DNA from: a phage
DNA length: 64,000 nucleotides
Sequence record: PV419677.1
Direction: 5' to 3' (one strand)
The translations under genes and the position numbers were made by a program. The notes under the pieces are model-generated. The model did not search any database and was not told the origin of the DNA. It saw only the letters and a program-made list of their open reading frames with translations. Shown one piece after another: positions 45,425 to 48,551 of the stretch; positions within the stretch are counted from its first letter, which is position 1; the number at the start of each line of letters is the position of its first letter.

Positions 45425-45711
45425 TAGAACCTCATCTGGAAACCGTGTGATTTAACATTACCGCCATTAATATCAGATGAATTAATTTCGCGCGCCACGG
45501 TTGGGTCAATATTAATGTCACGACTAAGCTTAGTGATTGCCAGAGTATCGCGTCCATTAACAGTCCGGAATTCTAGTGGGCAAACCACATCAACATAGTT
45601 CTTAATGGAATCACGTGTTGGTTCACACCCAGCAGGAACATTAGGGCCTTTTTTAGAGAGAACAACTTCACAGAAATTTTTACGTGTATCAAAGTAAGTA
45701 GTCATAAACAT
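45424..45711 (-). CDS. Hypothetical protein
   Basis: Start trimmed to Met20 (RBS GAGGA); 95 aa; preceded by GGGGGCTTTCGCCCCC hairpin. Confidence 0.5.
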   Translation of the reverse strand: MFMTTYFDTRKNFCEVVLSKKGPNVPAGCEPTRDSIKNYVDVVCPLEFRTVNGRDTLAITKLSRDINIDPTVAREINSSDINGGNVKSHGFQMRF

Positions 45712-45725
45712 AGTATTTTCCTCAA

Positions 45726-45745
45726 GGGGGCTTTCGCCCCCCCAT
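45726..45745 (-). terminator. GC hairpin between small ORFs
   Basis: GGGGGCTTTCGCCCCCCC. Confidence 0.4.
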
Positions 45746-45751
45746 TTAAGA

Positions 45752-46117
45752 TTAGATATCAAATTCATTAAGAACTACATCAAAGATTGCTTCCAGGTGT
45801 TCAGGTTTTGCTTTGTTGCTCAGGATGTGACGAATCCAAGTTTTAACCAGAAGCTTGCGATTAACACCATTCCAGCAAGGATGGGTTCCTAAATCACGTT
45901 CACGGAAATCATCATCTAACGCGATTTTGAATACCGAGCCTTCCATCGTGATTGAAAGAGTGATACCATTTTCAAATCGCATATAAACGTAGTTAGGAGT
46001 CATATATTGTTCAATTTCACACACTGAACCGTTTTGATGTTTCCACAAGCAAATAACTTCAGAAGAACCTGGGATGCAGTTAGAAACATATTTGCGTTCA
46101 AAGTTGATGTAGTTCAT
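45752..46117 (-). CDS. Hypothetical protein
   Basis: 121-aa ORF; RBS GGAG; early promoter inside hairpin at 46157-46186. Confidence 0.55.
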   Translation of the reverse strand: MNYINFERKYVSNCIPGSSEVICLWKHQNGSVCEIEQYMTPNYVYMRFENGITLSITMEGSVFKIALDDDFRERDLGTHPCWNGVNRKLLVKTWIRHILSNKAKPEHLEAIFDVVLNEFDI

Positions 46118-46156
46118 TTTATTCTCCAGTTGTTTTCATTTGTTGGTACAGGTTTA

Positions 46157-46186
46157 TAATATCATAACCTGTACCAAAGTAAACTG
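46157..46186 (-). promoter_or_regulatory. T4 early-type promoter embedded in a 10-bp-stem hairpin
   Basis: Minus strand GTTTAC-17-TATTAT; plus strand hairpin GGTACAGGTT...AACCTGTACC. Confidence 0.5.
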
Positions 46187-46188
46187 TT

Positions 46189-46557
46189 TTATGCGACTTT
46201 AATCCAATTATCTAAATTTAATTCACCCTTAGCTTTCATTTTTTCAATCAGAAGGTCTGCAGTGGTGCGACCATTTTGATACCATGTAACATCTTCAGAA
46301 TAACCAGTTTCTTCATCTTCATAGGTCTTACAACGAATCTTACCCAAAATCAAAGTTTTCAGTTCGTAGGTATCACCAGTAAAAAAGTTTGTTACCATAA
46401 TTTTCCAAGAGAAGTCATCAGAAGGACCTTCTGGAGTCATGCAACCTACAAATTCAAACTGCTCTTTATACAAGTGCCATTGCATCTCTTTAGTTTCGAT
46501 TGCTTTGTAGCCGTCGTGGTCTTTACCTTTGATGTATGAGTTAAGATTGATTTTCAT
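46189..46557 (-). CDS. Hypothetical protein (30.9-like position)
   Basis: 122-aa ORF; RBS GGAG; early promoter 46598-46628. Confidence 0.55.
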   Translation of the reverse strand: MKINLNSYIKGKDHDGYKAIETKEMQWHLYKEQFEFVGCMTPEGPSDDFSWKIMVTNFFTGDTYELKTLILGKIRCKTYEDEETGYSEDVTWYQNGRTTADLLIEKMKAKGELNLDNWIKVA

Positions 46558-46597
46558 TTTATGCTCCAGTGTTTTATTGTGTAACTCAGTATGAAAT

Positions 46598-46628
46598 CAT
46601 TATGCACTGGACCAACCCTGTTGTAAAC
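46598..46628 (-). promoter_or_regulatory. T4 early-type promoter
   Basis: Minus strand GGGGTTTACAA then spacer then GCATAATGATTTCATACTGAG. Confidence 0.55.
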
Positions 46629-46643
46629 CCCTTTATGGAAAAT

Positions 46644-46670
46644 AAAAAAAGGGACTCCGAAGAGTCCCTG
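46644..46670 (-). terminator. Rho-independent terminator after the 58-aa ORF / rIII-proximal noncoding region
   Basis: Minus strand CAGGGACTCTTCGGAGTCCC followed by TTTTTTT. Confidence 0.65.
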
Positions 46671-46836
46671 AACTTATGCTTTCGGCTTACCAAAGCAAGC
46701 TGCATCGGCACGCAATACCGCACGAGCACGAGCCTGAAGTTTATCAGTCACCTGATTGATTCGCTTGTTGGACGCACGCTTGTAACCAGCGCGTTTGGAG
46801 GAGTCATCAACAACTTTAACTTCTTTCTTAGCCATA
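46660..46836 (-). CDS. Small basic protein, possible (58 aa)
   Basis: Found by hand: MAKKEVKVVDDSSKRAGYKRASNKRINQ...; immediately followed by strong hairpin terminator; weak RBS. Confidence 0.35.
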
Positions 46837-46856
46837 TTAAATTCTCTTTAAAATAG

Positions 46857-47224
46857 AATGCAGGACTTATTGGCATTGCCTGCGCAAGCCCTCGAAGGGA
46901 ACATTAGGTTTCGGATATTTAACGACAGGATAACCATAAACCTCGTCATCATAGCTCTTATCTGTTGCACACCGTTAGCTTAAAGGTTCCGGGTTCGATT
47001 TCTCGAGGATAAGATATATACTGATGGATATATAGGCCTTGAGGCGTACTCCCGATTGGCCATCACCTCGGGGTAGCATGCACTTGCCGCTATAAAATAA
47101 CATTCAAGAGGTACACCGTAAAACTGCCGAGGTCTTAAAACTATAATGATTCGCAAATCATTAATCAGACAGTTCGACGGCTCCTCGATTTTAGCTCACA
47201 CTAAGGCAGTGAATCTCCAATAAA
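46857..47224 (-). other. ORF-poor structured intergenic region downstream of rIII (candidate noncoding RNA or regulatory element)
   Basis: No ORF of 60 aa or more on either strand over about 370 nt in an otherwise gene-dense region; perfect 8-bp-stem hairpin TAATGATT-cgca-AATCATTA; complementary segments GACCTCGG/CCGAGGT; direct repeat GATATATA x2. Confidence 0.35.
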
Positions 47225-47479
47225 TTACTTCAATGTTACCACAAAGTGACGAACTGCTTTTCGTGCAGCAGATGCCAGCGGCTTAGCAAATTTCAGTTCA
47301 TCTTTTGCTTCGAGCACTGCGCGAAGGTCGGTTTGAACCGGGTTAAGATGTTTGAAATACTGCAGAATTTCCAGTGCTTCGGCTTCAACATCAATAGATG
47401 CGCCGTAGTTTTCGTGACCGTTATTCCATGCAGTGCGTTGCAGTTCGAGAGCGTGTTGTAATTGTTTGTTTAAAGACAT
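47225..47479 (-). CDS. rIII: Lysis-inhibition accessory protein RIII
   Basis: Start trimmed to internal Met (RBS GAGG), 84 aa (T4 82); position next to gene 31. Confidence 0.7.
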   Translation of the reverse strand: MSLNKQLQHALELQRTAWNNGHENYGASIDVEAEALEILQYFKHLNPVQTDLRAVLEAKDELKFAKPLASAARKAVRHFVVTLK

Positions 47480-47636
47480 TTTAGAAGCCTCAATATGAGG
47501 TGAATATTTGGTGGACACGTTCTTCTGAATTTCACTTCCTTTCGGCAAGTCTCTCAGTTGTAGTCCACCGTTTAGGATTCTCCGGTTAACTAACTGGTCC
47601 GGCAGCCAATCCATATTATTATTTATAACGCTAATT

Positions 47637-47984
47637 TTACTTATAAAGACAAGGAACAGCTTTATAATGACAGGTCACAAATTTCTGCTTAACTTCTTTA
47701 GCCTGCTTAAGTCCCAGTGCAACCAGAGGATGTGGAACGTTTGCAATCTTGCCAACCGGAAGAGGAGTCAAATCACCTACTTCGCAGAAGCCTTCAGGAA
47801 CATCCGGACCAACCGAAAATACTTCACACATCTCCGGGATTTCACCCTGATGGAGTTTTCCGATAACGATGCCTGATGCCGTAGTTTCTTCATCACCAGC
47901 TTGCTTTGGCTCAGAAACCAAAATAATATATTCACCTACTGCTTTAATTGGTAATTCCATATTTAATCCATGTTGTTTGGTCAT
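47637..47984 (-). CDS. gp31: Co-chaperonin gp31 (GroES analogue for capsid folding)
   Basis: 115 aa; near-identical blocks to T4 gp31 ([66 protein letters not shown]). Confidence 0.95.
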
Positions 47985-48015
47985 GTATTAATAATAGCAT
48001 GCATTGTTTGAAGCA

Positions 48016-48315
48016 TTAAAGAACGAGCAGAGTCTCGGTCTGCAGTCCATTCACGGAAATCAATTTATTGAAACAGAATGAACGCCATTCATTAAGCTTG
48101 GTATCAAATACCCGGATATAGCTAACTGGTTCTTTATTGACTTCTGGTCCAGGGGCCTGGATTTCTTTATACGGAAGCAGGTCCAGGTCGCGAGTACAAG
48201 TCATACGACGAACACTGCCATCTGCTTTTTCAAACAGAACTTCGTGAAAGCCAACAGACAAAATAGTCTTGACTTTTTCACGGAGGCGAATTGTTTCTTG
48301 TTCAGTTAAAATCAT
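48016..48315 (-). CDS. Hypothetical protein (31.1-like position)
   Basis: 99-aa ORF. Confidence 0.5.
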   Translation of the reverse strand: MILTEQETIRLREKVKTILSVGFHEVLFEKADGSVRRMTCTRDLDLLPYKEIQAPGPEVNKEPVSYIRVFDTKLNEWRSFCFNKLISVNGLQTETLLVL

Positions 48316-48317
48316 AA

Positions 48318-48551
48318 TTATTCCAAAACAGTTTTAATAGTGGTTGCATTCCGCTCTTTTAGAGCACTCAGCAGGGATTTGCATTTTTCAAAAACCGGGT
48401 CCGTTTTATACCGGATGCTTTCGTCAATCCATTCGGATTTATAGTAAGACTTCCAACGAGAGAAGAAATACTTTTTGTATTCCACTGAAAAAGAGATTAT
48501 ACCCGTCCCCCGAGGACTAAGACTGGTTATTTTAACCATACGAAATTTCAT
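48318..48551 (-). CDS. Hypothetical protein (31.2-like position)
   Basis: 77-aa ORF. Confidence 0.5.
   Translation of the reverse strand: MKFRMVKITSLSPRGTGIISFSVEYKKYFFSRWKSYYKSEWIDESIRYKTDPVFEKCKSLLSALKERNATTIKTVLE

Follow-up and report, generated by a model that had tools for sequence, protein, structure and literature searches.

The noncoding gap between gene rIII and the homologue of gene 30.9 in a T4-like phage (sequence record PV419677.1; the whole analyzed stretch of 64,000 nt is referred to as the window) consists of conserved RNA modules that are separable from one another and lie on the gene-sense strand. One of these modules, a domain of ~147 nt termed the core, forms a new family within a known general kind of RNA, the orphan structured phage RNAs, and very probably represents a conserved functional RNA structure. 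An earlier note, made from the letters of the sequence, had drawn attention to a long gene-free stretch after rIII and had suggested a small regulatory RNA, a structured 3′ untranslated region or a decayed gene. The gap is real, although its size is 389 nt (46836-47224) and not ~370 nt; a structured RNA is strongly supported by covariation, whereas the decayed gene is rejected. The core is considered a functional RNA rather than a DNA site or the remnant of a gene, because its closed fold of several helices includes a tertiary contact that co-evolves, because many of its junction nucleotides are invariant and its conservation exceeds that of the neighbouring essential genes, and because it is found at two unrelated loci with a clean presence or absence among near-identical phages.

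Fold and covariation of the core RNA

The elements of the core, obtained using RNAalifold, a covariance model and pairing counts, were as follows:

46949-47095, minus strand: core RNA domain, ~147 nt, six helices
47089-47095/46949-46955, minus strand: P1, closing helix, usually 4-9 bp with flanks included
47075-47088, minus strand: P1a, weak hairpin
47068-47072/47051-47055, minus strand: P2
47029-47034/47015-47020, minus strand: P3, covarying
47060-47065 (UGAUGG) with 47022-47027 (CCAUCA), minus strand: predicted L2-L3 kissing loop, six covarying versions
47008-47014/46956-46962, minus strand: P4, long-range helix stacked on P1
46995-47007, minus strand: P5, tetraloop hairpin with loop GAAA (UAAA/UAAU in some relatives)
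46990-46994/46969-46974, minus strand: P6, with one C-G to U-A switch in phage Olmo

The sample consisted of 33 distinct core sequences from GenBank phages, IMG/VR and metagenomes, 19 of which were entered into RNAalifold. Compensatory changes were found at 21 of the 39 pairs predicted in the nested structure from these 19 sequences. Paired cells made up 97.6% of the total, versus 26-39% when the 3′ partners were slid by 1-3 columns, and none of the 500 shuffles reached any of these measures. The covariance model of the core (R1) had a single match in the 64-kb window (46953-47091, 168 bits, E 1e-36). Helix P1 measured 4-9 bp in most versions and differed in sequence between them, one version having only 2 contiguous bp. 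Since G-U alternates with G-C in the supported helices, which fits one strand only, the gene-sense strand is the RNA strand. Compensatory changes, for which the earlier note had proposed an alignment of relatives, were revealed in the core as well as in modules B and D1 of the gap (see below).

The loops of P2 and P3 were complementary over 6-7 nt in every core sequence, and the complementarity was perfectly Watson–Crick in six versions (UGAUGG/CCAUCA, CGAUGG/CCAUCG, CUAUGG/CCAUAG, CAAUGA/UCAUUG, UUGUAUU/AAUACAA and UGCAUU/AAUGCA). Each version was equalled by ~1% of composition-preserving loop shuffles, and pairing was worse between non-cognate loops. The kissing-loop pairs supersede the inner P2 pairs of RNAalifold; the contact is a predicted one and may be intra- or intermolecular. 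The segments GGCAAG.GCAUG, GGCCUAU, GGA.CC and GCUAAC.GUGUGCAAC were unpaired and invariant, and in total ~50 core nucleotides, located at junctions, were both unpaired and near-invariant.

Two further tertiary contacts were considered and are not claimed. The sole conserved complementarity of at least 4 nt among the invariant single strands was a local GGCA/UGCU hairpin without covariation, so that additional pseudoknots were rejected. A GNRA tetraloop–receptor contact was dismissed as well, as the P5 loop is GAAA/GUAA in most sequences, UAAA/UAAU in some and unrelated in Pseudotevenvirus.

Several motifs that had been pointed out from the letters were reinterpreted in terms of this fold. The two segments of a presumed long-range pairing, GACCTCGG (47127-47134) and CCGAGGT (within core P2), are both present; however, compensation is missing in relatives that carry GACCCCGG or GACCCCGA, and the first segment but not the second is found in T4, so that the pairing is not upheld. 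The letters of the direct repeat GATATATA are indeed present on the plus strand, but on the transcribed strand they are the arms of the covarying P3 hairpin (47015-47034). The resemblance of GGTTCGATT to the T-arm of a tRNA does not hold either: this sequence lies on the non-transcribed strand, where it complements the P5/P6 junction; it is not a T-loop, and ARAGORN found no tRNA in the window.

Conservation, distribution and novelty of the core

The gap was matched by ~1,000 phage records. It was 92-95% identical to that of Tequatrovirus phages, with ~85% identity for the 1-kb region including the genes. A 135-nt core was 94-96% identical in Klebsiella phages of the genus Jiaodavirus and in others whose flanking DNA does not align. 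Its DNA identity to the window was 82-98% in cases where that of rIII, 30.9 and gp31 was 60-83%, and the cores of Dhakavirus JS98 and Tequatrovirus fPS-65 were 100% identical. Core carriers comprised 407 records of the Tevenvirinae type and ~20 of the Pseudotevenvirus type, set beside 1471 records with a gp31 homologue.

The core behaves as a replaceable unit. In T4, a bare TGA occupies the core site with both flanks kept and no target-site duplication seen, while in RB32 nearly the whole gap is missing. Mosigvirus HX01 carries an unrelated insert of ~48 nt at the exact core site (locus L051, 2826-2878). The junction between modules D1 and B is a hot spot for cassette replacement; modules A and D1, like the core, are variably present, and their order differs from genus to genus. 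In Pseudotevenvirus (Olmo, JC221, ~20 records), a diverged core lies between uvsY.-2 and the convergent uvsW.1, with no downstream gene on the core strand; it is followed by hairpins and a terminator only, the latter read by eye and not flagged by the scan. In Yersinia phage JC221, the ~700 nt between uvsY.-2 and uvsW.1 (locus L007, 2240-2935) have no credible open reading frame (ORF); besides the core, they contain module C, A-like and B-like modules, additional hairpins and a terminator that looks bidirectional, and this stretch may be a larger composite RNA locus. The Pseudotevenvirus Klebsiella phage iPHaGe-KPN-12i, which also has the core RNA in its uvsY.-2/uvsW.1 gap, carries the tRNA genes Met(CAT) and Gly(TCC) directly after gp31 and an ORF in the rIII position (locus L056, 2601-2758). 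As two tRNA genes occupy it in this genus, the slot after rIII is regarded as a stable-RNA slot.

A looser three-anchor pattern search of IMG/VR yielded no new lineages, and the covariance model with filters off gave no match in Mosigvirus HX01, Bragavirus phiP4-3, Acinetobacter phage DLP1 and RB49. A host origin was rejected: no blastn match was found in 5,426 E. coli genomes, and a pattern scan of 185,579 species genomes returned one match, attributed to chance, in a high-GC coding region and without a covariance-model match.

The core did not correspond to any known RNA family. The Rfam search that the earlier note had proposed for the region matched no family: cmscan against Rfam 15 with E up to 10 (45500-48500, 46830-47230 and the Olmo homologue) gave chance-level matches only, far below gathering scores, and none to a riboswitch or ribozyme family. 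ARAGORN, run on the window and 45 related loci, detected tRNAs only in L056, at a different element, and no tmRNA. Homology to the T4 RNAs rnaC and rnaD, suggested by the same length of 139 nt, was rejected, as model R1 with filters off scored at best 6.7 bits (E 1.5) in the T4 tRNA region. Pairing to E. coli rRNA or to operon tRNAs was likewise discarded: the best case, 11 nt to 16S rRNA, was equalled in 23 of 200 shuffles and involved a non-conserved part, and a 9-nt identity to 16S helix 27 was at chance level and not conserved.

No GenBank record inspected annotates the core as RNA. In several records (PQ341120, MZ681930, PQ030847 and OR352946 were noted for their labels), the gap is called “1,4-alpha-glucan (glycogen) branching enzyme”, and in others it is filled with strings of tiny hypothetical proteins; these labels look like propagated annotation errors. 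The literature on rIII/30.9 and on T4 non-coding RNA contained no mention of the core that could be found, although the catalogue of Fremin and Kyrpides, with more than 10,000 phage RNA candidates, may list it (PMC10690425). The invariant 16- and 17-mers of the core occurred in no paper searched.

Other modules of the gap and neighbouring genes

The remaining modules and the hairpin at the ribosome-binding site (RBS) of 30.9 were as follows:

47196-47215, minus strand: module A, short hairpin with a CAC/GUG-type stem and a conserved 9-nt loop U(G/A)CCUUAGU
47108-47186, minus strand: module D1, long irregular hairpin GAGGAGCCGUCGAACUGUC ... GGCAGUUUUACGGUGUACCUC, enclosing the hairpin 47144-47164
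46902-46953, minus strand: module B, candidate H-type pseudoknot with stem 1 AUGAC(G)AGG/CCUGUCGU, from covariation
46885-46902, minus strand: module C, G-C hairpin GUUCCC-UUCGA-GGGCUUG
46860-46883, minus strand: module E, variable hairpin GCAGG...CCUGC, from sequence reading
46841-46859, minus strand: hairpin AUUCU-AUUUUAAAG-AGAAU over the weak Shine–Dalgarno (SD) sequence of 30.9 (AAGAG), from direct reading

The loop of module A was found, by eye, with a covarying stem in pEC-M719 (CGC...GCG), JD18 (UGC...GCA) and JC221 (CGC...GCG), and its placement relative to the core varies between phages. Module D1, with 25 pairs, 4 of them compensatory (RNAalifold, 9 relatives), is present in T4 and HX01 and not in JD18-type phages. 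The perfect hairpin TTAATGATT-TGCG-AATCATTA of the earlier note lies within it, at 47144-47164, and is confirmed by compensatory changes in relatives (AUCGAUU/AAUCGAU in locus L046 and HX01). Stem 2 of module B is formed by a sequence in the loop and one downstream of the conserved linker GUUAAAUAU.C.AAAC. Across 13 distinct versions, 84% of cells were paired versus 28-51% when slid, with compensatory changes in all five stem-2 pairs and in three stem-1 pairs; in the window itself, stem 2 is degenerate (UAUGG/CCUAA). T-even gene 32 has in its leader an H-type pseudoknot that is recognized by a protein for the autoregulation of translation. Module B would likewise have an H-type fold and also lies in the leader 5′ of a T-even gene, but it belongs to another gene and has an unrelated sequence, and we know of no binding protein for module B.

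Module C, in the form GUACCC(C)-loop-GGGGCUUG with varying loops, is shared by nearly all relatives, in which it precedes the core, follows it or does both; modules B and C each occur once in the window. In module E, the position and the stem are kept and the sequence is replaced, with the longer GGGAGC...GCUCCC or GUGGAG...CUCCAC in other genera. The hairpin at 46841-46859 may sequester the SD sequence of 30.9, as judged from the letters, and an analogous hairpin (UCUCC-AAAAU-GGAAGA) was read over the SD sequence in JD18-type phages. Modules B, C and E, like a hairpin over the RBS, were present in all Tevenvirinae examined, T4 and RB32 included, and together they look like the leader of 30.9.

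The window is T4-like phage DNA with its genes on the minus strand, and its closest records are those of TH40, P479, SP18 and the VR7/VR26 group. Locally, cd and two small ORFs are followed by gp31 (47637-47984), rIII, the gap, 30.9, a terminator and early genes, and the features that bound the gap were as follows:

47225-47479, minus strand: rIII coding sequence, upstream boundary of the gap, from the ORF list; homologous records annotate rIII here
46674-46835 (ATG at 46835), minus strand: homologue of gene 30.9, 53-amino-acid (aa) basic protein, from the ORF list and phrog_1427 (E 1.9e-25)
46639-46669, minus strand: intrinsic terminator AGGGACUC-UUCG-GAGUCCCU followed by U7AUUUU, annotated at the same place in phage fPS-65

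The gap contains no ORF of at least 60 aa, in agreement with the earlier note; the longest has 58 aa and a TTG start (46980-47156, minus strand), and the others have 40-42 aa. The note's statement that neighbouring genes are separated by less than 60 bp has an exception in the gp31-rIII spacer (47480-47636), which measures 157 nt. This spacer contains, on the minus strand, the strong local hairpins GGAUU...GAAUCC and GGUGGAC...GUCCACC, with a minimum free energy (MFE) z-score of only −1.58, and an in-frame ATG at 47614 would lengthen rIII to 129 aa. The basic ORF downstream of the gap is a real conserved small protein (phrog_1427) with a weak SD sequence (AAGAG), but it has 53 codons and not 58. 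Gene 30.9 is kept in all loci examined and is so annotated in T4, LZ9 and RB32; the T4 homologue is annotated at 177 nt.

The strong terminator after 30.9 was correctly recognized: it has an 8-bp stem with 5 G-C pairs (46650-46669) and a UUCG loop, followed by TTTTTTTATTT. An early-promoter-like sequence (TTTACA-N17-CATAAT) lies directly behind it, and the resulting terminator–early-promoter composite (46599-46669, minus strand) resembles the PeSL shuffling cassettes of T4-type phages (PMC4122927). PeSLs are conserved intergenic motifs that combine a terminator hairpin with an early promoter and have been proposed to serve modular shuffling (PMC2839356, PMC4122927), and the composite fits their T4/PST-type description. 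PeSLs are repeated many times per genome, whereas the core, module B and module C each have a single copy in the window and lack a promoter. In a spacer between two early ORFs, a perfect 11-bp hairpin without a U tract, UUGGUACAGGU-UAUGAUAUUAUAA-ACCUGUACCAA (46124-46192, minus strand), was the source of a spurious Rfam match to mir-126.

Possible mode of action and significance of the core

The core shares separate traits with several characterized RNAs. GOLLD and ROOL, deposited in Rfam, are also phage-borne, non-coding, multi-helix RNAs with pseudoknots or loop–loop contacts, invariant unpaired nucleotides, a patchy distribution and an orphan function; they often lie near tRNAs, and the slot equivalent to that of the core carries tRNAs in the sister genus. 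However, they measure roughly 580-800 nt versus ~150 nt for the core, no sequence or structure match to them was found (cmscan, Rfam 15, E up to 10), and the core was found only in enterobacterial T4-like phages. The T4 species 1 and 2 RNAs (rnaC, 139 nt, and rnaD, 119 nt) are similar-sized small RNAs of T-even phages with an orphan function, processed from a longer transcript without a promoter of their own. Unlike the core, they belong to the tRNA cluster, and a tRNA-like arm forms the end of rnaC; T4 has both of them but lacks the core. Purine and lysine riboswitches likewise have a closing P1, side hairpins with Watson–Crick kissing loops and conserved junction nucleotides, but the helix count and topology differ (core P4 encloses P5 and P6), and no expression platform was found for the core. 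The phi29-family pRNA is a phage RNA of ~120-170 nt in which two loops covary to stay complementary. Its loops pair between molecules, thereby assembling a ring on the packaging motor, whereas T4-type packaging needs no RNA, and the core has no sequence similarity to it.

The following course of events may be proposed. The genes gp31, rIII and 30.9 and the gap would be transcribed as one RNA, in which the core would form an autonomous domain of ~147 nt inserted upstream of the 30.9 leader modules. T4-like phages would exchange the core cassette through recombination in the modules that flank it, and selection on the RNA would keep it almost unchanged, its loss not being lethal to the phage. 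The core RNA would be cut out of the polycistronic transcript or outlast it, and as a discrete folded RNA it would bind a conserved partner (protein, RNA or small molecule) of the enterobacterial hosts or of the phage; its role is probably not that of a 30.9 switch. Co-transcription and processing are inferred because no promoter of its own was found for the core, and the tRNA genes in the Pseudotevenvirus slot fit stable RNAs cut from a longer transcript, as are the T4 tRNAs and species 1 and 2. A structured RNA cassette that is accessory, spreads by horizontal exchange and acts at the RNA level, probably as a separate RNA or ribonucleoprotein working in trans, is given even weight with all other explanations taken together, and action of the core as a discrete RNA appears about as probable as action in cis.

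Several observations weigh against this interpretation. Good transcriptomics exist for only one relative, T4, and it does not carry the core. No partner was identified, the complementarity to E. coli rRNA being at chance level, and the position upstream of 30.9 in all Tevenvirinae would also fit a cis role. Recent horizontal transfer, and not constraint, could account for part of the near-identity between genera. The MFE z-scores of the window sequence were unremarkable (−1.2 to −1.4); single-sequence folding energies are unexceptional, and the case for the core rests on covariation. No sigma-70-like promoter was found in the gap or beside the Pseudotevenvirus copies, T4 late and middle promoters not having been formally scanned; since neither a promoter of its own nor processing sites were identified, the released RNA is an assumption.

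The rival explanations at the RNA level appear improbable in different degrees. The core might be a cis sensor (a riboswitch-like aptamer or a protein-binding operator) that controls the translation or stability of 30.9 via pseudoknot B and the RBS hairpin. The architecture is aptamer-like, with a closing P1, kissing-loop hairpins and invariant junction nucleotides; the core precedes 30.9 in every Tevenvirinae genome, the SD sequence of 30.9 appears to be sequestered in a hairpin, and the 3′ strand of P1 adjoins stem 1 of pseudoknot B in many Tevenvirinae, abutting it without overlap in window-type phages, an arrangement not conserved in JD18-type phages. However, the distance between the core and 30.9 and the intervening modules vary, B standing before the core in JD18-type phages and after it in window-type phages. 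Neither an alternative pairing of P1 with an expression platform nor an Rfam riboswitch match was found. A dedicated 30.9 switch is disfavoured, and an autonomous cassette favoured, because the Pseudotevenvirus core stands at the 3′ end of the uvsY operon without a downstream gene on its strand, which is inconsistent with a leader position, and because the same 30.9 leader exists without the core in T4, RB32 and HX01. Control in cis is considered unlikely. An element of mRNA stability or processing, shielding the upstream rIII (or uvsY-operon) mRNA from 3′ exonucleases or directing an RNase cleavage that uncouples rIII from 30.9, is also rather improbable. The core does lie 3′ of a coding region in both contexts (rIII; uvsY.-2 with a small ORF), compact pseudoknotted folds can block exonucleases, and GGAG, the target motif of RegB, was read in D1 at 47180-47183. 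Nevertheless, ~50 unpaired nucleotides invariant across genera are more than a roadblock needs, a terminator hairpin already ends both transcripts, and many close relatives dispense with the core.

Explanations without an RNA function fare considerably worse. A DNA-level element (a recombination cassette, a homing-endonuclease target, an origin or a protein-binding site) with incidental RNA structure would agree with the sharp-edged presence/absence polymorphism at different loci, with the inverted termini (P1), which resemble terminal inverted repeats, and with the shuffling of cassettes via conserved intergenic motifs in T4-type phages (PMC2839356, PMC4122927). Yet six helices and a loop–loop contact are kept by compensatory changes, the G-U pairs correspond to A-C mismatches on the other strand or are irrelevant in duplex DNA, and there is neither an adjacent endonuclease gene nor a visible target-site duplication; such an element is highly improbable. 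A decayed protein-coding gene, or spurious hitch-hiking conservation, can be given almost no credence. Several GenBank records do annotate a “hypothetical protein” or the branching enzyme over the core, but all six frames of the central 150 nt contain stops in all 8 lineages checked, the ORFs of the gap have no PHROGs or Pfam match, conservation of the region exceeds that of the real genes beside it, and its substitutions keep base pairs rather than codons.

A more far-reaching version of the RNA-level cassette, to which only tentative weight is given, is that the core represents a new functional class, a compact aptamer-, decoy- or ribozyme-like RNA traded as a free-standing cassette and acting in trans on a conserved enterobacterial target; what it sequesters might be, for example, a protein of the host, part of a defence system or a signalling nucleotide. 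If the trans interpretation were true, this would be an RNA-only accessory gene for host takeover or anti-defence in the best-studied phage family.

T4-like phages are a reference system, and in hundreds of their genomes the core has no annotation or is wrongly labelled as small proteins; it was overlooked because T4 lacks it, although it is more conserved than the essential genes next to it. Near-isogenic phages with the core (fPS-65, JS98), without it (T4) and with a replacement (HX01) provide natural genetic comparisons amounting to a swap of ~150 nt, and the covarying kissing loop is a ready design for disrupt-and-restore mutants. Even without a binding partner, the core adds a new family for Rfam-type annotation and removes spurious ORF calls. 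If the RNA does bind a host or phage factor, an RNA-only accessory gene would be added to the T-even repertoire.

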